A DNA stretch of 31,110 bases, from positions 1 through 31,110 of the forward strand of contig JAIFWS010000001.1 of assembly GCA_019658985.1 (NCBI GenBank), written 5' to 3'. The translations under genes and the position numbers were made by a program. The DNA is from Candidatus Parcubacteria bacterium (GTDB taxonomy: Bacteria > Patescibacteriota > Minisyncoccia > Minisyncoccales > Staskawiczbacteraceae). Below the pieces are notes generated by a model, which had not been told where the DNA came from, did not search any database, and was given only the letters and a program-made list of their open reading frames with translations. Position 1 is the stretch's first letter; each line of letters opens with the position of its first letter. Shown here piece by piece: positions 6,269-17,321 of the stretch.

Positions 6269-8095
6269 TTACTCTACCGTTACGCTTTTTGCTAAATTAC
6301 GGGGCTTATCAATTTCACATCCCCTCGCAACCGCGACATAATAGGCAAACAGATGCAATGGAATCGTAGCCAGAACCGGCGTGAGCATTTCCAGATTTTC
6401 GGGAATATATATTACATCATCAGCAATTTTTTGGATTTCCCGGTTGCCCTCGGTGGCGATAGCAATCACCTTGCCGCCTCTGGCTCTGATTTGCTGAATC
6501 GTGGAAATATTTTTTTCATAAACTGAATCAGTCGGGACAATGGCAAGGGTTGGAAATTCATTATTAATAAGCGCCAAAGAACCGTGCTTTAACTCCCCGC
6601 CGCGCATGCCTTCTCCATGAACATAGGCCACTTCTTTTAACTTCAAAGCCCCCTCAAGAGCAATGCCATAATTATATTTTCTGCCGATAACGCAAAAATT
6701 AGGGTACTGATGATACCTTCTGGCAATTTCTTCAATACTATTCCTCCGGCCTAAAATTTCCCGGACTTGGGCGGGGAGCTCTGAGAGTTTTCCAACAACA
6801 TCCCTGCCTGCCGGCCCGGATAACTGCCGCTGTCTTCCCAGAAAAAGACTGACGAGCGCCAGCGCTGCCACCTGGGCGGTAAACGTTTTCGTGGAGGCTA
6901 CGGCGATTTCCGGACCGGAATGAGTGTAAACTCCGGCATCCATCTGGCGGGCCAACGTGGAACCGACCACATTAACAATTCCCAAACTCAAACCCTTCCG
7001 CTCTTTCACTTCCTTAAGGGCTGCCAACGTGTCTGCGGTTTCGCCGGATTGGGAAATAAAAATAGAGAGCGTGTGGCCGTCAAACACCGGTTTTCGATAA
7101 CGGAATTCAGAACCGATTTCAACTTCCGTCGGAATACCTCCATATTCTTCGAGCATATATTCACCCACTTGGGCAGCATAAGCCGAACCGCCGCAGGCAA
7201 TAATCTGGATACGGTTAATATCACGCAACTTATCCTGTATGCTTTCCAATCCGCCCAGTTTCACGCCTCCCTCATCCATCAATAATCTGCCGCGCAACAC
7301 ATTTTCCAAGCTGGCCGGGTGCTCCATGATTTCTTTAAGCATGAAGTGCGCGTATCCCGTTTTCTCTGCTTCCTGCAACGTCCATTCGACTTCTGTTGCC
7401 ACTTTATCCTTGGCATTATTCTTCAGATCGGTAATTTTACATCCCTCTCCGGTTACAATGGCAATTTCGCCATCATCCAGAAAAATCATTTTATTAGAAT
7501 GGGAAAGGATGGTGCCAGGATCAGAGGCGATAAATCCTCCATCGTTATTGACTGAAATGACAATTGGGGCAGAAAGACGGGCCACCACGATTTTATCTGG
7601 GTCTTGCTTGGCAATAACGGCGATTCCATACGCTCCCCTTACTTGCGCCAGCGCCTTACCCACTGCCTCTTCTAGATTTCCGGTAAAAAAATGTTCGACG
7701 AGATGAGAGAGCACTTCGGTATCGGTCTCTGAAATAAACCGATGGCCTTTTGCTTGCAGCTCATCTTTAATCTGCTGGTAGTTTTCGATAATCCCATTAT
7801 GGATAACAAAAATATTCTGTTTGCAGTCAGCGTGCGGATGGGCATTTTCTTCGGTGACACCGCCATGCGTTGCCCAACGCGTGTGACCAAGGCCGATTTT
7901 CCCAGGAATATCCATCCCTTGGATTTTTTCTTCCAGCTTCTCCAATTTTCCCGTTGCTTTCACTAACGTAACATTATCATGATCAAAAACCACTACCCCG
8001 CTGGAATCATATCCGCGATAACTTTCATGGCGCAATCCGTCCATGAGGAGCGGCAACGCTTGCTTTTTACCAATGTAGCCGATAATCCCACACAT
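6269..8095 (-). CDS. glmS: Glutamine--fructose-6-phosphate transaminase (isomerizing)
   Basis: The true start is MCGIIG (ATG at 8095, catalytic Cys2). Motifs YRGYDS, GHTRWATHG, HNGIIEN, SQSGETADT, VASTKTF and KPRNLAKSVTVE. Confidence 0.98.
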   Translation of the reverse strand: MCGIIGYIGKKQALPLLMDGLRHESYRGYDSSGVVVFDHDNVTLVKATGKLEKLEEKIQGMDIPGKIGLGHTRWATHGGVTEENAHPHADCKQNIFVIHNGIIENYQQIKDELQAKGHRFISETDTEVLSHLVEHFFTGNLEEAVGKALAQVRGAYGIAVIAKQDPDKIVVARLSAPIVISVNNDGGFIASDPGTILSHSNKMIFLDDGEIAIVTGEGCKITDLKNNAKDKVATEVEWTLQEAEKTGYAHFMLKEIMEHPASLENVLRGRLLMDEGGVKLGGLESIQDKLRDINRIQIIACGGSAYAAQVGEYMLEEYGGIPTEVEIGSEFRYRKPVFDGHTLSIFISQSGETADTLAALKEVKERKGLSLGIVNVVGSTLARQMDAGVYTHSGPEIAVASTKTFTAQVAALALVSLFLGRQRQLSGPAGRDVVGKLSELPAQVREILGRRNSIEEIARRYHQYPNFCVIGRKYNYGIALEGALKLKEVAYVHGEGMRGGELKHGSLALINNEFPTLAIVPTDSVYEKNISTIQQIRARGGKVIAIATEGNREIQKIADDVIYIPENLEMLTPVLATIPLHLFAYYVAVARGCEIDKPRNLAKSVTVE

Positions 8096-8096
8096 A

Positions 8097-8837
8097 TTAT
8101 AATGATTCCCAAATAAAATTAAATAATTGCTGCTGCGTGGCAAACAAAGCCTCGTCCTCGATGATCAGGGCCAAGGGCTGTTTTGATTTAGTCGCGGAAA
8201 CCATGGCCACTTTGCCAGGGTAGATTAAAATGTAGGTCGGTGAACTTTTTTTGACACTCAAGGATTTTTTTTCTGCTAATTCCGCCACCGATCCCTTGTG
8301 GCCAATACCGATTGATTTGATACGGATTTTTCTTTTGATGCGTTGTTTTGTAAAATCGGGAAAAGCTTTGTAAATGTATTCGCGGATGGCTTCGGAAGAA
8401 AAAACGGAATAGTTTTTTTCTTTCGAGGATTCTGTTATTTCTAGCACATCAGATAAGACCGCCTTCAATCCCGCAAAACCTTCATAGTATTTCACCACCG
8501 GTTTATCAGGAGATTTATTAAAGAGCGATGTAAGTTCCGGAATGGCATCCGTCAACTCTTTTTTAACAGATTCAAGATTTTCTATTTTCTGCGCCAGTGT
8601 TTTCTGCAGGGCGGCCGGATTTTCGGCAACAAAAAATTGTTTAGTATCTTTGTGATAGTAACTAACCAAACCGCCTTCTTTTAAAGACTTTAAAATATCA
8701 TAGGTAGTGCCGCGGTTTATCTTACTAAAAGAAGCCAGAGTACGGACCGAAGAAGGGCCCTGTTCCAGCAGGACAAGGTAAATTTTTATTTCCTTGTCCG
8801 AGAAACCCAATTGTTTTAGTATCGGAATAACTTCCAT
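8097..8837 (-). CDS. TrmB family transcriptional regulator
   Basis: LKQLGFSDKEIKIYLVLL...SKINRGTTYDILKSL wHTH and a PLD-like C-terminal region. The likely start is ATG 8837, just below a sigma70 promoter. Confidence 0.9.
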   Translation of the reverse strand: MEVIPILKQLGFSDKEIKIYLVLLEQGPSSVRTLASFSKINRGTTYDILKSLKEGGLVSYYHKDTKQFFVAENPAALQKTLAQKIENLESVKKELTDAIPELTSLFNKSPDKPVVKYYEGFAGLKAVLSDVLEITESSKEKNYSVFSSEAIREYIYKAFPDFTKQRIKRKIRIKSIGIGHKGSVAELAEKKSLSVKKSSPTYILIYPGKVAMVSATKSKQPLALIIEDEALFATQQQLFNFIWESL

Positions 8838-8872: not shown

Positions 8873-8910
8873 TTTTTTTTCTACAATATTTGTGGATAAT
8901 ATTTTGCAGC

Positions 8911-8940
8911 AATAAAAAATCCCTTCTTTACAAAGGGATT
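8911..8940 (-). terminator. Intrinsic terminator of array 1
   Basis: Minus strand AATCCCTT-TGTAAAG-AAGGGATT-TTTTATT, 15 nt beyond the last repeat. Confidence 0.75.
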
Positions 8941-8954
8941 ATTGAAGCCTTAAC

Positions 8955-10586
8955 GACGGACTACTCCGCCCCTCGGTTCAAGATGAGGCGCTATGCACCA
9001 CCATGCCGGACGTTGTAATAATGACGGAATACTCCGCCCATCGCGCAGACTAACTAAAGAGCGGGACACCTGAGCAAACTAAACCGAAGGTAGGCAGATT
9101 AATGGCGGATAACTCCGCCCATCGCATCGTGACGCGATACTAGACGATACCGTGCGGAAGCATGAGTATCCTTAAAGACGGCGCACGCCGTCGGACAGCG
9201 GGACACACCGACAGCGGAGAGAGTCGTACAAAACCTAGCTCAGCTCTGTTGTCATGGCGGCATACACCACCCACGACTAGGCAAAAGAGCGCTTTACCAG
9301 ACATTGCCACACGACACGAAAGCTCATCGACAGCGGAGTACTCCGCTCATCCACTATACTGGCACTAGGACTGGCTTCACCTCACAAGACCGTGACTTCA
9401 TAGCGGAATACTCCGCTCGCTCACTATACCGGCGCTAGAACTGACTTTACCTCGCAAGGCCATAACTACTCCGCCAGGCGCCAGGCAACAGTAGGCTCGA
9501 CATTACGTGAGCAGACCACAGGATAACCATTCCCTTGACGGTTTACACCGCCCCGGAACTAGCATTACCTCACTCCGCCTAGCTTAGCTCGACGGATGCA
9601 CAGGAGAATTCATGGCAGAGTACTCTGCCGGGCGTGAAGCGCGGGAGAAGATTGCGGCACCGTGACAGACTTAACCAAGATTTATGGCGGAGTACTCCGC
9701 CCAATACCTGACCAAGCCCGATCTTGCTAGACCTGGCCTTGCCAAATAATAGCGGCGTACGCCGCCCGTAACTTAGAGACGCGTGAGGTCGCAAAGCGAC
9801 AGTTGACTACACGGGACGATACCGCAGCCAATGCATGGCGGAATACTCCGCCCCGAACAAGAACATAGCGGATCGCAGTAAACCATGCCGATTCACAGCT
9901 TGCTCTTGCTTTCATGGCGGCGTACGCCGCCCTTCAAACTAAGTTACCATGAGCTAGGGTACCTTGCCTAATCGCGGCGGATTACTCCGCCCGGCAAAAC
10001 TAACGTGCAGTTGGCTACTCCACGTTACAAGAATACCACGACGGCATACGCCGCCAGAAAAGATACCTGGCTTGACTCCGCGCCACTAAACCTAACCTAA
10101 TCATGACGGAATACTCCGCCCGATACTGTGGCTTAACCCACTGCACCATAATGAGGTAAACCCCATTAATGGCGGAGTACTCCGCCCGACAATCACAATG
10201 TACGGTTGACTGCCATGTGTCGCCAGATAGGTAACGACGGAATACTCCGCCGCGCATGTCGGGTTACGCCACGATACGTTGGCGCACACCGCCTTGAATT
10301 GCATAACGGAATACTCCGCTCAGAAGCCGGGTAGACTCCGCCTTAGGAAGCTTAGCTCCACCCCACCAAATATAACGACGACATACGCCGCCGTGCATGC
10401 AGCACTAAGCTGGATCACACGCCATCGGACCTTGCCATTAACGGCGGATCACTCCACCCGCTAGCTAGCTCCAAGCTACTGCGCGTTGCCTAACTAAATA
10501 TCGACAGCGGATTACTCCGCTCTTCACTGAACAAACACGCAACTAAGACGTAGCCCGCAACGGGCCGCCTTAAGTTATAGCACTTG
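8955..10586 (-). CRISPR. Array 1: non-canonical CRISPR-like hairpin-repeat array with 5-nt-periodic spacers (22 full repeats plus 1 half)
   Basis: 16-nt cores (+ strand consensus G(G/A)CGGA-NTA-CTCCGCC) at 8955, 9023, 9104, 9177, 9256, 9332, 9402, (half 9468), 9537, 9614, 9686, 9751, 9837, 9916, 9976, 10040, 10105, 10171, 10236, 10305, 10377, 10443 and 10506. Spacers are distinct, with a periodic first unit to ~10586. Promoter and terminator give minus-strand orientation. Confidence 0.85.
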
Positions 10587-10598
10587 CATATTCCAAAT

Positions 10599-10627
10599 AA
10601 TATAACTTAAGGCGATTTCTTAATCAA
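10599..10627 (-). promoter_or_regulatory. Sigma70-like promoter of array 1
   Basis: Minus strand TTGATT (10627-10622), 17 nt, TATATT (10604-10599), overlapped by inverted repeats. Confidence 0.65.
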
Positions 10628-10638
10628 ATAAGAAATCT

Positions 10639-10678
10639 AATAAAAATCACGGAGCCGAAGACATTGCTGTACTTCGGC
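10639..10678 (-). terminator. Intrinsic terminator of the DinG gene
   Basis: Minus strand GCCGAAG-TACAGCAATGT-CTTCGGC then TCCGTGATTTTTATT. Confidence 0.65.
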
Positions 10679-10707
10679 GCCGCGATCATTTGTCTACCCA
10701 GGCCTGC

Positions 10708-12648
10708 TCAGTCGACGAGCAGATCCTCGGCCTCCCCGAGACACTCTTCCAGATCCCGGTCGCCGATGTAGACGCCGTGGGCCTGCAACTCCGGCGGCAG
10801 GTTGTGGAAAACGAGTTCCCGGAACCCTTCGGACATCAGCAGAGACACACCCTTGCAATCCTTGCTTCGGATGTTACGGCCGAGAGCCTGGAGAGTCTGC
10901 AGGACAACGCGCGCCCTCGTCCGAACCCAAGCCCCCTTTCCATAGCGCTGTTGTTCGAATTGCGCAACCGCACTCTCCGGATCGGGATACCCCGGGCGCA
11001 GGAGCCACAGCGCACCAGCTAGACCGTCCGGCAAATCCAAGCCCGTGCCGTAGTGCGCCATGCACCCGATCAGCACTTGGCCCTGCCCGTCCTTGAAGAG
11101 TCGCGCGGCCTCCTTAGCCGGCATGTGACCGTTATAGGTCACGACTTCCAGACCCGCTTGTTCACAGAACGCGATACACTGTTCACGTTCTTTGTTCGAC
11201 ACCAGGAGCACGAGGCTACGGATGTCTTGCTCAGCCAGGCGTGCGCAGCCATTGGCGATGGCTCGCAACGTTCTCCGTTTTTTCTTCCCTGACATGTCCT
11301 GCTTGCGCGAGAGATCGTCCACGTCGCAAGGCACCATGATGCGACGGTTGGTCGCCGGGAATGGCGACGGAGCCGAGTGCATCTGCAGGCGCAGACCCGT
11401 TTCGTAGCGGAAGTGGTCGGCGTTTTGGCCGATCGTGGCCGAGAAGCAGAGGGTGGTGGGAGGAGCCAGCCTCTTGATGATCAGGCCAGCCACGTAATGG
11501 CAGTGGAGCCTGAGCAGATACTCGACTCTTTCCCTTCCCTTCTTGATCTGGAAGAACGAACAGGTGTAGTTGAGCGGCCGACGGATGACTTCGTCGTCAT
11601 CGTTCTTCACCGGGATGCCAAACCTCATCGTATGGCCATATCGCCGGAGATCCCGCGTCAGGCGTTCCAGATCCCTGACAGCACGGAAGTCGGTTGGCAT
11701 TTTGAGATGCCCCGCCTCGATCGCTGCCCGTCTTCTCTCGCCCTCAATGATACCGGGTTCGATTTCATCGAGGATTTCTAGTAGCTTCTCAATCTGGTCA
11801 CCCTCGAGCAGATACTCCCGATCGGGTTGCCGATCCTCGCTGTGGGCAATCTCATTCATTGCTTCCAAGAAACGCCTCAGGATCGGCGCTTCCGGTGCGT
11901 GAATGCGTTCGAGAAGGGCGATCGCCTGGCTGACGTGGTAGTTACTGATCGTGTAACTCAACGTGTAGCGGATGACATCCGGCCACTGGTGAGCTTCGTC
12001 AACGATCAGCACTGGCACGCGGCCGTAGGCGGTCTGATACACGTCGCCATCCTGCTTGTTGCCAAACAGCATGATGTACGTGTAGGCGGACATGGTCATG
12101 ACGACGATGCCGCCACCTTTCTTGGCTTCGTAGGTCTGTTGGTAGTACGGACAAGGAACCGCGGACGGATCCTTGACTTGGCCGGTCTTCTGATCAACGT
12201 AGTGCGGACAGTTCTTGTGGAACATGTACGGCACTTCGTCAACGCGCGGCACATCCGGATTGGCGGCCAGCACGGGCAACTCGTGCCGCTGGACCGGGTT
12301 TTTCGGCTCTTCCTCGAAGCCCTCGTGGGCCCAAGGACAGACGTGGTCATGTTGACCGAAGACCACCCGCACATCGGGATGCTCTTCCTTGATCTGCGCG
12401 ACCACTGCCCGGGACGGCGCGATCCACACAACCGTCTCGCCCGGTTCCAGTTTGCTCAGGGCATACGAGGCGGCAGCATATTCCAGCGCCGTCTTGCCCG
12501 TCCCCGTTGGAAGCTGCTGAAGCCACTTCCCCTCCGCCAACGCCCGCATCGCATCCCGTTGAATGGGACGCGGAACAGTGATTTTGTCGGTGAGGGGGAA
12601 ATGGGACAATAGCCCCGGCGTGTCGAACTTCAATCTGTCCGTCGGCAT
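10708..12648 (-). CDS. DinG/XPD-family SF2 helicase (array-embedded)
   Basis: Q motif RPIQ, motif I PTGTGKT, motif II VDEAH, motif III FSAT, motif V GTGLDLP, motif VI QALGRNIRSKDCKG. Cys motifs CPW, CPHY and CPYY lie in the Fe-S region. SD GGAGGAG. Confidence 0.93.
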   Translation of the reverse strand: MPTDRLKFDTPGLLSHFPLTDKITVPRPIQRDAMRALAEGKWLQQLPTGTGKTALEYAAASYALSKLEPGETVVWIAPSRAVVAQIKEEHPDVRVVFGQHDHVCPWAHEGFEEEPKNPVQRHELPVLAANPDVPRVDEVPYMFHKNCPHYVDQKTGQVKDPSAVPCPYYQQTYEAKKGGGIVVMTMSAYTYIMLFGNKQDGDVYQTAYGRVPVLIVDEAHQWPDVIRYTLSYTISNYHVSQAIALLERIHAPEAPILRRFLEAMNEIAHSEDRQPDREYLLEGDQIEKLLEILDEIEPGIIEGERRRAAIEAGHLKMPTDFRAVRDLERLTRDLRRYGHTMRFGIPVKNDDDEVIRRPLNYTCSFFQIKKGRERVEYLLRLHCHYVAGLIIKRLAPPTTLCFSATIGQNADHFRYETGLRLQMHSAPSPFPATNRRIMVPCDVDDLSRKQDMSGKKKRRTLRAIANGCARLAEQDIRSLVLLVSNKEREQCIAFCEQAGLEVVTYNGHMPAKEAARLFKDGQGQVLIGCMAHYGTGLDLPDGLAGALWLLRPGYPDPESAVAQFEQQRYGKGAWVRTRARVVLQTLQALGRNIRSKDCKGVSLLMSEGFRELVFHNLPPELQAHGVYIGDRDLEECLGEAEDLLVD

Positions 12649-12766
12649 ACACTCCTCCCGCTAATAGAGTGGTTGGCTGTCTCCGTTGATTCGAGGATGT
12701 CCGTGCTAATTATCAAAGGTCTTCATCGCTGGACTCGCCCTAGGGCAGGTCTAACGAAGCGCGCTT

Positions 12767-12795
12767 AATTTAACATCAAAAATATCCTTTGTCAA
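12767..12795 (-). promoter_or_regulatory. Sigma70 promoter of the DinG gene
   Basis: Minus strand TTGACA (12795-12790), 17 nt, TAAATT (12772-12767). Confidence 0.65.
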
Positions 12796-12832
12796 TTGAT
12801 TATTATTGTTATAAAAATCCCTGTTTTATACA

Positions 12833-12860
12833 AACAAAAAGACAGCCTGTAAGAGCTGTC
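12833..12860 (-). terminator. Intrinsic terminator of array 2a
   Basis: Minus strand GACAGC-TCTTACAG-GCTGTC-TTTTTGTTT. Confidence 0.75.
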
Positions 12861-12870
12861 TAGAATCAAT

Positions 12871-13779
12871 GACGGAATACTCCGCCCTAAGTGCGGGTGC
12901 GACTTTCCAGGCCGTAGAGGAGGCCGCGGCGACTAACTCTGCCCGATAATAACGGTGTACACCGTCCACAGCGGCAAGGCGCGCTAGCGGGATTCACGAA
13001 ACTCTGCGCTGAGTAATAGCGGATTACTCCGCCCAAAAGGACGTGGCGTGATACGATAAGGGACCACACCCTGGCAAGCCCAATCGATGGCGGAATACTC
13101 CGCCCGATACACTAACTTGGCACGCCCTACTTAACCCAACCTTGGCAAAGATCCATGGCAGAATACTCTGCCGACTGCTCCAGGCCGCTTTGGCGGACCA
13201 GACGCCACGATGCTTTACCCCGGTCTCATCAGCATGACGATCTACATCGCCGCTAACCCGAGTTCTAAGCTGGTTGACGTTACTCTACCGAGCCTCAATC
13301 ATGGCGGCTACGCCGCCCGGCACCAAGGGTTGCCGTACGGCACTTAACTGCACGTAGTATTCATGGCGGAATACTCCACCGGGCAAGTAGACGTGGAAGA
13401 TATTACGACACCGTACGTCAAATCATGGCGGTCGACGCCGCCCGGTACTCGATCCTGCGTTAGCTGACATTGCTCTGGCATGAATATTGGCGAACTACTT
13501 CGCCGGATAGCGCTGAGTAGGAAATCCTGGAGTACTACACGTTACAGCACGCCACGACGTCTAACGACGGAATACTCCGCCCCTAAACCTACTAAGAAGG
13601 AGGGAGCTACGCCATACTAGGTAACGGCGACGTACATCGCCCGAGAGGTGGCTCAGCAATGCCTTAAGATGCTTTACTCAACCCCAAGAATCATGACGGA
13701 CTACTCCGTCCGCAAGTGTACTTAATCCTGGTGGACTAAACCGTAGCTAAGGGAAATGTCAAAGAACCTATCCAATGAA
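12871..13779 (-). CRISPR. Array 2a: same non-canonical hairpin/pentamer array (13 repeats)
   Basis: Cores at 12871, 12951, 13018, 13089, 13157, 13236, 13303, 13365, 13427, 13489, 13566, 13626 and 13695. The first unit (13715-13779) is also periodic. Confidence 0.85.
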
Positions 13780-13784
13780 TTCCC

Positions 13785-13813
13785 AATGTAACACAAAACC
13801 TCCTACAAATCAA
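13785..13813 (-). promoter_or_regulatory. Sigma70-like promoter of array 2a
   Basis: Minus strand TTGATT (13813-13808), 17 nt, TACATT (13790-13785). Same -35 hexamer as the array 1 promoter. Confidence 0.65.
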
Positions 13814-13820
13814 TTTCGCC

Positions 13821-13854
13821 AAAATAAAAAAGGACAGCGTTTGACGACTGTCCT
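13821..13854 (-). terminator. Intrinsic terminator of array 2b
   Basis: Minus strand AGGACAG-TCGTCAAACG-CTGTCCT-TTTTTATTTT. Confidence 0.75.
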
Positions 13855-13867
13855 ATGAACTTGTAAT

Positions 13868-14712
13868 AGCGGCTATGCCGCCCTTTGAGATAAGCTGCTT
13901 TAGTTTACCCAGCTGCATCATACCCAATAATGACGGATTACTCCGCCCGTAACGCCGAACCGTCCTACCTGACGCTACTCAAGAGAAATGACTAATGACG
14001 GATTACTCCGCCCATCGAAGAGCAGGATACGACAGCTGGCAGAACCCCACCATACGTTATCAATGACGGATTACTCCGCCCTGCACCGGGACTAATTACG
14101 CAGCACGATACGCCACGATGGCACTTGCCTAACAGCGGCGTACGCCGCCCAAGACCGGACACGAGGCTTGCTTAACTGTAGTAAGCTTTACCTAACCGCA
14201 GCAGGTCGATGACGGTCTACGCCGCCGGTAAGGTAAGTCGGTGGTGGTGCGCGAAGCTTCACTAGCGCGCAACCTGACTCAACTTTATCATAACAGCGGA
14301 CTACTCCGCCCTCTACAATGGCTTACTTACGATGAGGTGAACTACGCTTTACTAAAACTTCATGGCGGACTACTCCGCCCAAAGATGTGCGCAACAGCGA
14401 CACGCTCGGGCTCGCTGCGCCATGGTAAATTCATCGATGGCGGACTACTCCGCCCGAAAACTTGCTGAGGGCGGGTGCGCCTAACTCAACACAACACCAC
14501 CGAATCGTTGGCGAAATACTCCGCCGGACAAGCTGGTATTCCGCGATTTACTGCACGGAACGTTGCAGAGCTTGAGCACCGTAATGGCGGACTACTCCGC
14601 CCCGTACGAATAACTACTGAATGGAACTATGCCCTGGCTAAAACCATGACGGTTTACACCGCCCGGTAACCTGCAACGGAGAAGTCAACTCTACGTAACC
14701 AAGCCGAATCAT
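13868..14712 (-). CRISPR. Array 2b: same non-canonical hairpin/pentamer array (12 repeats)
   Basis: Cores at 13868, 13932, 13997, 14065, 14134, 14211, 14295, 14364, 14439, 14510, 14586 and 14648, with periodic sequence continuing to ~14712. Confidence 0.85.
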
Positions 14713-14717
14713 CAGGC

Positions 14718-14766
14718 AAAAAAAATCGCAGAACCAGCACACATTCCTGTGTGTCCGGCCCTGCGA
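14718..14766 (-). terminator. Long hairpin plus U8 (terminator or attenuator) between the CSD-protein gene and array 2b
   Basis: Minus strand TCGCAG-GGCCGG-A-CACAC-AGGAAT-GTGTG-CTGGTT-CTGCGA-TTTTTTTT, about 17 bp including G.U pairs. Confidence 0.65.
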
Positions 14767-14806
14767 CCCTAACGACGGTTGAACCCGCCTTTTGTTCGCC
14801 GAAACA

Positions 14807-15733
14807 TCACGACACCGGCTCGACCCCGAAGGCATCGAGCGTGTACTTGGGCTTGCGGCCCGGACGGTATTCGGTCTTGGGGTTGCGTTGAGCCTTGGCC
14901 AGGTTCGAGAACCTGACCCGTTGACCTTGGCCCAGGTAGCGCAGCCGGGGGCTCGGCGGCGCCTCCGTCCAGTGCACCCGCGCCCAGCCCTGAGCGGTGA
15001 CGATCTTGCCCATGTTGCGGGCATCGTGCCAGCTCTCCACCATCCCTTCGTTGCGCCGGAGCCCGTCGATACTCGGCTCAGGCGGAAAGAGGGTGTCGGG
15101 GGCGGGAATCAGCGGCAGTCCCTCGGGAGCGAGATTCACCAGAACCGTTCCCAGGTGCTTGTGTTTGCCGACGCCCGGAAAACAGAGTCTGCCCTTGTAC
15201 CCGGAACAGGCCAGCAGGTCCTGTCGGCGCTGCACCGTCAGGAAGAACTGCCTACCCTGGCTGATGACGGCCACCTCCCACACGTGCACATGGCCGGTCA
15301 GCCTTCCTGCCAGCCGCACGTACTGGCCGAGGCACAGCGTGTTAGCCGGATAGGAGGTCTTGTTGAGGAGAGGACCATCGTAGGCGAAGAGATCCAGGCC
15401 GAAGCGGGATCCGAAGACGACGCCCTCGGAGTCCTTGTCGCGACTCGACAAGAAATCGAAGCGCCGCTTCTGCTTGGCGTGGGCCTCTTCGTAGCCCTCC
15501 TCATTCAATTGGGGGATGTCATCCGGGTCACGGTTCCAGTCCTTCTGGGGCAGGAAGTTATCATCTCCCGTCCGGAAGAACGCGACCGTCCAGTCGGCGT
15601 CGTCGGCCACCTCGGCCAGGATCGTCACCGATCCGGAAGCCAAGTCTCCGACGTAGCCGTCTGCTTCGGGCGCCACGAGGTCTTTTTCGTGATAGACCTC
15701 CACAGCAACGCCCGGGATCTGGTAAACGCTCAT
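14807..15733 (-). CDS. Hypothetical protein with a C-terminal cold-shock-like (OB-fold) domain
   Basis: Residues ~229-308 (EGMVESWHDARNMGKIVTAQGWARVHW...YLGQGQRVRF) align by eye with CspA (GxVKWFNxxKGFGFI...VFVHF...LxEGQxVxF). SD AAGGA. The N-terminal 220 aa are not recognised. Confidence 0.7.
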   Translation of the reverse strand: MSVYQIPGVAVEVYHEKDLVAPEADGYVGDLASGSVTILAEVADDADWTVAFFRTGDDNFLPQKDWNRDPDDIPQLNEEGYEEAHAKQKRRFDFLSSRDKDSEGVVFGSRFGLDLFAYDGPLLNKTSYPANTLCLGQYVRLAGRLTGHVHVWEVAVISQGRQFFLTVQRRQDLLACSGYKGRLCFPGVGKHKHLGTVLVNLAPEGLPLIPAPDTLFPPEPSIDGLRRNEGMVESWHDARNMGKIVTAQGWARVHWTEAPPSPRLRYLGQGQRVRFSNLAKAQRNPKTEYRPGRKPKYTLDAFGVEPVS

Positions 15734-15825
15734 TGGCGAAACCGTCCTTTCTTTTCAAGGTGCACTTATTGCCCGCCGACATAGCGAGCTTCAGATAGAT
15801 TGCTCCTATCATATAAATTATCACT

Positions 15826-15869
15826 TGTCAATTAATTGCGTTGACAGACGGAACATAGTATGTTAGCCT
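15826..15869. promoter_or_regulatory. Back-to-back divergent promoters for the CSD-protein and Cas7-like genes
   Basis: Plus strand TTGACA (15841-15846), 17 nt, TAGCCT (15864-15869) with an extended TG. Minus strand TTGACA (15831-15826) has only a weak -10. Confidence 0.55.
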
Positions 15870-15941
15870 CAAAACCAGTTTCAGGATGAATGTCTGGCGA
15901 CGCCAGCGAATCCTGAATAGCACCTAGCACCGGGAGAACCT

Positions 15942-16877
15942 ATGTCCGAGCCTGCTGTGTTGGAACTGCCGGCGCTCGACGAGAGCGCTATCGCCACCAT
16001 GTACGAAAGCCCCATCATGACCACGCGTCGGGTGGCGGTGTTCAAGTTCTGCCTCAAGGGCCGCAAGCCCTTGCTCTGCGACCGCATGAGTGGGGGGGCG
16101 TTGGACTCCATCTTCACGGGCCAGAAGCTGGAGATCGCGCCCGACATGCGGATCGAGGAGCGGGCCTGGATGAAGGCCTATGGGCGCAGCTACGAAAAGG
16201 ACGTACCGGTCGGCCCCGCCGTCATCCCCGTCGAGAACCTCTCGGCGGCCCTGGTCGCCGCCGGCTGCGCGATCCAGTACGGCAGCGGCAAAACGGAGAA
16301 GGTCACCTTCTCCACGAAGAACACTTCGTTCTTCGGCATGATCGAGTTCCGCGACGAGCACTTCACCATCTTCGGCCCGGACGGGAAACCGGCCGAGTGG
16401 GTGGTGGACAAGCGGCGCGGCGCGGCCAACAACAACAATGGCAGCGCGGTCTGCATCGTCCGCCCCAAGTGGCCGCGATGGTGCATCGCCGGCTACCTGG
16501 ACCTAAACCTGGACTCCGGCCTCAGTCCCGACAAGGCGCTGGACCTCTTCACCGAGGCGGGCAAGAACCACGGCCTGTGCAGCGCCAGGCCGGGCAACAA
16601 AATGACGTTCGGCATGTACGACGTCACCACGTTCGAGTGGGTGGGGGGCGTGGACCCCAAAACCATCACCGTCAGCGTGGGCAGCAGCACGACGGCGGCC
16701 AAGCCCAAGCGCGCCACCAGCCGCAAAAAGAAGGTTGCCGACGAAGCGCCCGCGCCGGACGCCACTTCGGAGACGCCGGCGGACGCGACGCTCGACGGCC
16801 AAGCCGCGGCCGAGACGCTGGGGCCCGGCACGCCGTTGGGCAACGGCGAAGCGCCCGCCGCCGAAACCCCGCAGTAA
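15942..16877 (+). CDS. Cas7-like RAMP-superfamily protein (candidate guide-binding backbone subunit)
   Basis: RAMP-like motifs: FKFCLKGRKPLL (beta1), AVIPVENLSAALVAAG (cf. Csm3/Cmr4 xIPGSSLKG), VVDKRR...IVRPKWPRW (thumb region) and AGKNHGLCSARPGNKMTFGMYDV (G-rich loop, cf. GLGxxRxxGxGxF). ~70-aa low-complexity tail. SD GGAG. Confidence 0.72.
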   Translation: MSEPAVLELPALDESAIATMYESPIMTTRRVAVFKFCLKGRKPLLCDRMSGGALDSIFTGQKLEIAPDMRIEERAWMKAYGRSYEKDVPVGPAVIPVENLSAALVAAGCAIQYGSGKTEKVTFSTKNTSFFGMIEFRDEHFTIFGPDGKPAEWVVDKRRGAANNNNGSAVCIVRPKWPRWCIAGYLDLNLDSGLSPDKALDLFTEAGKNHGLCSARPGNKMTFGMYDVTTFEWVGGVDPKTITVSVGSSTTAAKPKRATSRKKKVADEAPAPDATSETPADATLDGQAAAETLGPGTPLGNGEAPAAETPQ

Positions 16878-16902
16878 CAACTGATGGGACCAACAACGCA
16901 AT

Positions 16903-16940
16903 GCCGCCAAGAGATTCTATCTCCTGGCGGCTCTTTATTT
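16903..16940 (+). terminator. Terminator after the Cas7-like gene
   Basis: GCCGCCA-AGAGAT-TCT-ATCTC-C-TGGCGGC followed by TCTTTATTT. Confidence 0.7.
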
Positions 16941-16958
16941 ATATGTATTCAGAAATTT

Positions 16959-17321
16959 CTATTTTTCTTCTTCCCTGTTTAATTTTTGCGCTGCTTCGGG
17001 CGTAGAAACCGGTTTGCTGATCAAAAATAATTTTACAATCGCCCACACTAAAAAGTAATATACGAGCAAGGCAACTAGGCAACTCCATTCAATAACGAAT
17101 CCCTGCGATGCAATCCGGGGGAAAATACCTACAAACGGCCCAACCAAGGGCTGGGTCAGATTATAAATCAGATTTACAAAAGGCGAGGCCGGATTAGCGC
17201 CCAATAATCTGAAGATAAAACGTACGACAATCAAGAATTCAACAATGCCAAGTATGTACCACGCAATTTGAACACCCCGGTACAAGGGCTTAGTGGCTGG
17301 AGAATTGTAAGATGATTCCAT
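16959..17321 (-). CDS. YggT family membrane protein
   Basis: LIVVRFIFRLLGANPASPFVNLIYNLTQPLVGPFVGIFP is the YggT signature. Confidence 0.85.
   Translation of the reverse strand: MESSYNSPATKPLYRGVQIAWYILGIVEFLIVVRFIFRLLGANPASPFVNLIYNLTQPLVGPFVGIFPRIASQGFVIEWSCLVALLVYYFLVWAIVKLFLISKPVSTPEAAQKLNREEEK

Follow-up and report, generated by a model that had tools for sequence, protein, structure and literature searches.

Two adjacent vrRNA units in a VIPR-like locus of a Parcubacteria genome as a probable tandem duplicate, and slow change of NN dinucleotides in orthologous guides

Two adjacent guide units in a repeat array of a Candidatus Parcubacteria bacterium are probably the products of a tandem duplication of one vrRNA gene, and we put the probability of this reading at about 0.8. 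The window, by which we mean the whole stretch of 31,110 nt that was analyzed (contig JAIFWS010000001.1, positions 1 to 31,110), carries the two copies on its minus strand at 9332-9397 and 9402-9467. What is new here is modest: class-specific substitution rates in orthologous vrRNAs and what appears to be a guide-gene duplication caught in the act.

VIPR (Viral Interference Programmable Repeat) is a CRISPR-like system first described in 2026 (bioRxiv 10.64898/2026.04.26.720920, 10.64898/2026.04.26.720927, 10.64898/2026.10.15.759431). As published, it combines a stand-alone RAMP protein (Vipr) with vrRNAs in which 9-16 YNNGG repeats are followed by a structured 3' tail; contacts with DNA are made by pairing of the NN bases, and one target base is skipped per repeat. 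YNNNG and NNNGG are alternative repeat consensus sequences, and types III-V carry nucleases or helicases as accessory (vap) genes (bioRxiv 10.64898/2026.04.26.720920). In published systems, one Vipr protomer binds each pentamer and offers the two N bases for gapped DNA pairing, and the cryo-EM paper places Y in a pocket that sterically excludes purines (bioRxiv 10.64898/2026.04.26.720927). Characterized examples of type II are those of Escherichia phage SUSP1 and of a prophage in Pseudomonas fulva (bioRxiv 10.64898/2026.04.26.720920, 10.64898/2026.04.26.720927, 10.64898/2026.10.15.759431). For phage type II, the preprints show the gapped code biochemically and structurally. They leave open the origin of guides and whether the code extends to the divergent helicase-linked systems of ultrasmall bacteria; where new vrRNAs come from is not stated in them, and substitution rates by repeat position are not given.

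In the window, about 48 units of 60-86 nt lie on the minus strand in three ORF-free stretches. The first array (8940-10560, about 23 units) is preceded by a promoter-like site (10627-10599) and closed by a terminator (8940-8918), the second (12860-13745, 13 units) ends in a terminator at 12861-12840, and the third (13860-14700, 12 units) in one at 13854-13831. Within the 697-kb genome (62-contig assembly), arrays were found on this contig only. Between the arrays lies a minus-strand gene for a 646-aa DinG/XPD-type SF2 helicase (10708-12648; Pfam DEAD, Helicase_C_2, and ResIII), which is likely an accessory (vap) gene. A helicase gene of this type also adjoins the Vipr homologues of two related loci, the JGI metagenome contig L126 and the Pacebacteria contig L135. 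L126 was found via a protein 84% identical to the Vipr-like protein described below, by a homologous-protein search followed by retrieval of the encoding contigs. Further along, the minus strand encodes a 308-aa protein without a Pfam family (14807-15733; 76% aa identity to its L126 counterpart).

The plus strand at 15942-16877 encodes a 311-aa protein, likewise without a Pfam family, whose AlphaFold model (residues 1-250, pLDDT 65, pTM 0.67) has the Cas7/Csm3-like fold of a stand-alone RAMP. Compared with a fold library, the model matched chains of Csm3, Cas7-11, and type VII Cas7 (E 3e-4 to 5e-3, prob 0.95-1.0), the best matches being Csm3 and Cas7-11 chains (E about 3e-4, prob 0.99-1.0). 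A PDB sequence search with the protein returned chance-level matches only. We therefore refer to this predicted RAMP as Vipr-like, the basis being a medium-confidence model that matches Cas7 proteins and not a solved Vipr (library to 2026-04-08).

Because hairpin-ended YNNNG guide arrays occur together with a Cas7-like 311-aa protein and an adjacent helicase, and because Cas1 was not found, we class the locus with VIPR, as a helicase-linked system of YNNNG type. It shares with VIPR a Cas7-like stand-alone RAMP beside arrays of guides built from pentanucleotides, in each of which a pyrimidine recurs and two bases vary, a structured 3' tail that is conserved, a DNA-acting accessory gene, and the lack of cas1/cas2. 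The equivalence of C and U in the window arrays also fits the purine-excluding Y pocket (bioRxiv 10.64898/2026.04.26.720927). In contrast to the published repeat, the window repeat is YNNNG, in which only the G adjoining the next Y is enriched (60%) and both G positions are near-neutral. The tail is a simple 6-bp hairpin, whereas that of SUSP1 is a pseudoknot, and about 48 guides in three arrays compare with four guides in SUSP1. Unlike the phage and prophage type II systems, the locus resides in a high-GC island of a 0.7-Mb Patescibacteria-type chromosome.

The locus also resembles class 1 CRISPR systems in its repeat-spacer layout, its hairpin-forming repeats, its Cas7-like RNA-binding protein, and its association with a DinG-family helicase. 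In class 1 CRISPR, a Cas7 backbone imposes 6-nt periodic base flipping, and type IV-A employs CasDinG; deletion and duplication of units via the repeats of CRISPR arrays are known. The window locus differs in that it is without Cas1/Cas2 and Cas5/6/8, and its repeats measure 16 nt. Moreover, its “spacers” carry an internal 5-nt scaffold and therefore cannot be captured protospacers. A reading as a CRISPR-Cas array was rejected on account of this scaffold, of a Cas1 HMM search that gave no match in the genome (97.5% complete) and detected Cas1 in 7 control genomes, and of an Rfam scan of the window that matched no family.

Read on the minus strand, a vrRNA gene consists of 9-10 YNNNG pentamers followed by a 3' 16-nt hairpin, GGCGGA-GUAN-UCCGYC. 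Positions -5, -10 and so on to -45 from the hairpin are pyrimidines in 77-94% of 47 units, and the intervening positions are close to random. The pentamer class of each base was assigned by phase-tracking Viterbi; over the 128 units of the window and L126, class Y is 96% pyrimidine, G2, which immediately precedes Y, is 60% G, and G1, one base further 5', is 31% G. The hairpin tail has a 6-bp stem and a GUAN loop, and the stem covaries. Among the 128 hairpins, the pairs at stem position 6 include AT (80), CG (21), TA (9), TG (6), and GC (5), and orthologous hairpins show 12 double compensatory and 28 single-sided pair-keeping changes versus 19 pair-breaking ones. The frequent G.U stem pairs are possible on the minus strand only, the terminators and the promoter-like site lie on that strand too, and transcription probably proceeds from it. 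For the calling of units, a sliding Fourier period-5 detector was also tried for other loci and proved too noisy, because hairpins break the phase; units were called from their hairpins instead.

Copy A of the duplicated pair (unit W9347) comprises a hairpin at 9332-9347 (AGCGGA-GUAC-UCCGCU) and a pentamer tract at 9348-9397, and copy B (unit W9417) a hairpin at 9402-9417 (AGCGGA-GUAU-UCCGCU) and a pentamer tract at 9418-9467. An earlier note on this DNA had aligned 9353-9397 with 9423-9467 without gaps at an offset of 70, and its description was largely borne out: 36/45 positions are identical and all nine differences (alignment positions 8, 12, 17, 22, 26, 32, 37, 40, and 42) are transitions. 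Six of them, at 12, 17, 22, 32, 37, and 42 (2 mod 5), do fall on one period-5 position, corresponding to Y in the minus-strand RNA. The difference at position 8 (9360), taken at the time for a triplet third base, actually lies on a G-type scaffold position. The count of only two NN differences is correct for the 45-nt span and becomes three once the 5 nt adjoining the hairpin are included. The homology is also longer than previously claimed: it covers 66 nt including the hairpin (9332-9397 versus 9402-9467, 53/66 identical, 13/13 differences transitions) and ends sharply at 9397/9467. Copy A has the NN code AC CT GA GA CA CT GC AT GG and copy B the code AT CT GA AA CA CT GC AT GA, a difference of 3/18 bases.

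The pair is the sole outlier among 1128 pairs of window units (76% identity versus a mean of 40%, sd 5%). Its local score is 28, whereas the highest score in about 10,000 comparisons after class-preserving shuffling was 18. Both copies carry a rare, A...T-closed hairpin variant, as the note had observed, which occurs in 4/48 window hairpins, and both have the same two phase slips. They agree at 9/10 G2 positions and at 8/9 G1 positions, where agreement by chance is about 26% per site since G1 is nearly unconstrained. This agreement at nearly unconstrained G1 sites argues for shared descent and not for a shared target only.

No homologue of the pair's tract was found in L126, in L135, in the locus L134 of a same-genus genome, or in the rest of the genome. 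Since the pair is absent from the syntenic L126, the duplication would be specific to the window lineage, unless L126 lost the block. We propose that a whole unit, with its pentamer tract and its hairpin, was duplicated in tandem over 70 bp, after or independent of the split from L126, and that the likely cause was unequal recombination or slippage between hairpin repeats. That the copies arose independently of Cas1, as had been suggested, agrees with the outcome of the Cas1 search of the genome. The copies would then have diverged by transitions only, concentrated at the C/U-equivalent pyrimidine positions and with changes at 3 of 18-19 NN bases, so that both guides would still specify nearly the same gapped target. 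Both copies may be expressed and loaded, and such duplicates could serve as raw material for new guides. Against this reading stands the fact that the pair is a single event, picked post hoc. Its Y divergence of about 60% also exceeds the ortholog Y divergence of 23%, though the pair is missing from L126. It may thus be older and have been lost in L126.

The damaged repeat that had been noted upstream of copy B is real. Only the 5' stem half and the loop are left at 9466-9475 (GGCGGAGTAG on the plus strand), about 12 nt (3' stem half and tail) being deleted, and unit W9475, whose pentamer tract (9476-9536, minus strand) is without a complete 3' hairpin, abuts copy B. This tract is orthologous to unit J1669 of L126 (score 30), which has a complete hairpin; the 12-nt deletion would hence be specific to the window lineage, unless the block was lost in L126. 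This half of the hairpin may have been removed in a separate event, a microhomology deletion of 12 nt.

Gene order in L126 is the same as in the window: TrmB regulator, array, helicase, arrays, 308-aa gene, Vipr, and YGGT gene. L126 has about 80 units compared with 48 in the window; 38/48 window units have a clear ortholog there, 10 are private to the window, and 42 are private to L126. Between the shared flanking orthologs J1669 and J1505, L126 has one different unit (J1586) and the window has five (W9417 to W9119). Together with the paralogue pairs described below, the comparison shows that whole guide genes are duplicated, moved, gained, and lost at hairpins. As a further observation, the order of units is scrambled between window 8940-14700 and L126 460-8900: W14012 has its L126 ortholog in another array, the run W13504-W13442-W13380/W13317 is reversed, and W13104 and W14310 are relocated. 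DNA relatives of the array were not found in 60 related genomes, a search of genome contigs for the hairpin pattern returned scattered single chance matches only, and a related-locus search with the Vipr-like protein yielded none in genome contigs or metagenome contigs.

A comparison of substitution rates by pentamer position had been put forward as a check on the gapped reading of these guides. Over the 38 orthologous units of the window and L126, the rates are not uniform (chi-square P = 3e-15). Differences were found at 82/357 Y positions (23.0%; 79 transitions and 3 transversions), at 32/360 N1 (8.9%), 29/362 N2 (8.0%), 98/362 G1 (27.1%), and 77/363 G2 positions (21.2%), and Y and NN differ strongly in rate (P = 1.5e-10). 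For comparison, 29-35% of the fourfold-degenerate sites in three flanking genes differ (33% overall). NN sites change 2.7-fold more slowly than neighboring sites, for transitions and transversions alike. At Y, C/U exchanges occur at a rate of 0.23, equal to that of transitions at G1 sites, which are unconstrained (0.18-0.22). Two proposals of the earlier note, purifying selection on NN and the interchangeability of C and U at the periodic position (79/82 ortholog Y changes are C/U), are thus confirmed by the orthologs, and not by the duplicated pair itself. A conserved scaffold or GGY motif is not upheld; the rates at G1 and G2 are as high as at Y, and the repeat reads YNNNG.

The window and L126 therefore amount to a natural experiment in which the NN bases of orthologous guides are conserved some three- to fourfold better than neutral sites. 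This evolutionary evidence supports the view that specificity is carried by the NN dinucleotides, and it lends independent support to the gapped code in a YNNNG-type system. It also suggests a practical rule for annotating and aligning such guides, which is to compare NN only. Along the guide, with pentamers counted from the hairpin in the 38 orthologs, NN differences amount to 3-8% in pentamers 2-5 and 7-8 and to 14-16% in pentamers 1, 6, and 10. Taken broadly, NN is best conserved in pentamers 2-8 and less so in the first and last, a hint that the end repeats may matter less for the guide.

Measured against these rates, the duplicated pair is a good illustration but weak evidence alone, with an all-transition spectrum and a low rate of G change that are mildly odd. 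Direct internal evidence for a gapped code, which it had been claimed to offer, is not needed, since the code is already published (bioRxiv 10.64898/2026.04.26.720920, 10.64898/2026.04.26.720927). Over 48 phase-matched sites, the copies differ at 6/10 Y, 1/9 N1, 2/10 N2, 1/9 G1, and 1/10 G2 positions, and the contrast between NN (3/19) and non-NN (8/29) is not significant. The Y excess is clear against a uniform null (P = 0.005), marginal against ortholog-derived rates (P = 0.05), and not significant with transition-only weights (P = 0.24). Y positions (6/10) also differ more than G positions (2/19; P = 0.009), whereas in the orthologs Y and G change equally, and only 1/35 ortholog pairs reaches the Y share of the duplicate pair. 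Transitions make up 13/13 differences in the pair but 65% of those between orthologous units, and only 55% in these orthologs outside Y. A transition-only mutational process may, besides selection, contribute to the spectrum of the pair.

Among the alternatives to a local tandem duplication, the one that survives best, while still unlikely, is that one copy was imported. Recombination with a diverged homologous array of another strain or element would have placed an allelic guide beside the resident one, and the differences would then reflect between-strain divergence. The window and L126 diverge widely in which units they have and in what order, one unit even having moved to another array, so recombination at hairpins is frequent, and the copy junction coincides with the damaged hairpin. 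The Y divergence of the pair (6/10) exceeds the between-locus value of 23%, as an import would allow, but its G divergence (2/19) is below the between-locus 24%, the opposite of what a distant donor predicts. An import also has to contend with the rare hairpin variant common to both copies, and donor-like sequence was not found in L126, L134, L135, or the genome.

Somewhat less probable again is that the pattern of differences reflects mutation and not function, through a transition-only process on non-template-strand pyrimidines (e.g., cytosine deamination in a highly transcribed array), many of which occupy the Y phase. All 13 differences are transitions, and sense-strand pyrimidines changed at 8/21 sites in the pair compared with 3/27 purines (P = 0.04); the comparison of in-phase with out-of-phase pyrimidines (6/10 versus 2/12) reaches only P = 0.07. 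The orthologs, in contrast, show no strand asymmetry (C/T 0.18 and A/G 0.22 at unconstrained G1 sites), and the slower change of NN in transitions and transversions alike is beyond what a mutation bias can produce.

We consider it very improbable that the pair is an assembly artefact, in which two strain variants of one unit were joined in series in a metagenome-assembled genome. The assembly is in 62 contigs, the junction beside copy B is irregular (truncated hairpin), and the public reads from a soil run give no piece that covers 9300-9500. However, the copies differ at 20% of sites, and their longest identical run of about 9 nt is too short to mislead a k-mer assembler; the tails of the two hairpins differ, and tandem or dispersed paralogue pairs are also present in two independent assemblies. 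Least probable of all is that independent guides became alike by convergence of their NN codes on related targets, without DNA duplication: the codes agree at 15/18 bases, which is what guides directed at two alleles of the same gene would show, but 8/9 nearly unconstrained G1 and 9/10 G2 positions agree as well, the hairpin variant and the two phase slips are common to both copies, and the spacing of the copies is exactly one unit length. Among public sequencing runs, we found a single trace of the array, in the DNA run of a soil metagenome, which yielded a 151-nt contig identical to window 10355-10505 and a 38-nt partial piece; RNA runs that contain the stretch were not found.

Targets of the two guides were also sought. 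A self-target search of the organism's own genome with skips of 0-3 bases gave no enrichment for skip 1. The W9347 code in the exact one-base-skip pattern had 6 matches in IMG/VR (L127-L132, four of them independent) in unrelated genes, compared with 0 and 1 matches for permuted-order control codes and 0 for the W9417 code. Two of the six matches fall in genes for CI-like HTH repressors, within the part that encodes the Peptidase_S24 domain, and four place the skipped base on codon position 1.

A tandem duplication at 9332-9467 raises the question of how far arrays grow by duplication and divergence, as had been supposed. This was found in part: one clear tandem event in the window stands beside one probable event and two pairs in two related loci, and most of the turnover is left unexplained. 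In total, three loci with about 170 units hold four paralogue pairs. In L126, the adjacent units J7888 and J7807 share their NN code over the first seven pentamers, with 3/7 Y positions differing, and have wholly different codes in the last three; they are either an old tandem duplicate or a recombination mosaic. L134, whose Vipr is 44% identical, has AT-rich hairpin arrays with a dispersed 73-nt paralogue pair at 6715-6787 and 8218-8290 (85% identity, 1.5 kb apart). It also has a mosaic pair (units 2224 and 2881) that shares its ends and a rare hairpin variant and not its middle. Pooled over three paralogue pairs in a hand tally, 10/27 Y, 6/55 NN, and 9/53 G positions differ.

Paralogues of the 10 window-only and 42 L126-only units were not detectable. 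An all-versus-all comparison of NN positions only, which the earlier note had recommended, gave about a two-fold excess over pentamer-order shuffles and no further clear paralogue (NN-only identity of at least 0.65 in 7 window pairs versus 2.8 shuffled, and in 19 L126 pairs versus 8.2). This comparison neither proves nor excludes older duplications. Duplication and movement of whole guides are a candidate route to new guides that explains a minority of the turnover. A more speculative reading, which we hold to be less likely than not, is that VIPR guide repertoires, for which adaptation machinery is not known, could arise and be replenished through cassette dynamics at the hairpins: tandem and dispersed duplication of entire vrRNA genes, shuffling between arrays, and mosaic replacement, followed by drift of NN. 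If this is true, the pair at 9332-9467 would be a duplicate caught before retargeting, and the process would be a Cas1-free precursor of spacer acquisition.

A different arrangement of guides was observed in L135 (10600-12260), where some ten YNNNG guides are situated between the genes for a Vipr homologue of 202 aa and a ResIII/Helicase_C_2 helicase. L135 resembles the window in having a Vipr homologue (32-35% identity) beside a helicase and YNNNG guide genes. It differs in that every guide forms a separate mini-gene, which runs from promoter to terminator and has a long terminator hairpin for its tail, instead of being one unit in a long co-transcribed array.

The VIPR island itself (window 8900-17000) has a GC content of 52-64%, compared with 40-50% in its flanks. 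It is bordered by housekeeping genes (a glmS-like gene and genes for a TrmB regulator, a YGGT protein, and a protease), and it sits at the same site in L126. Its high GC content stems either from an insertion that is old or from an effect of the system itself on base composition.
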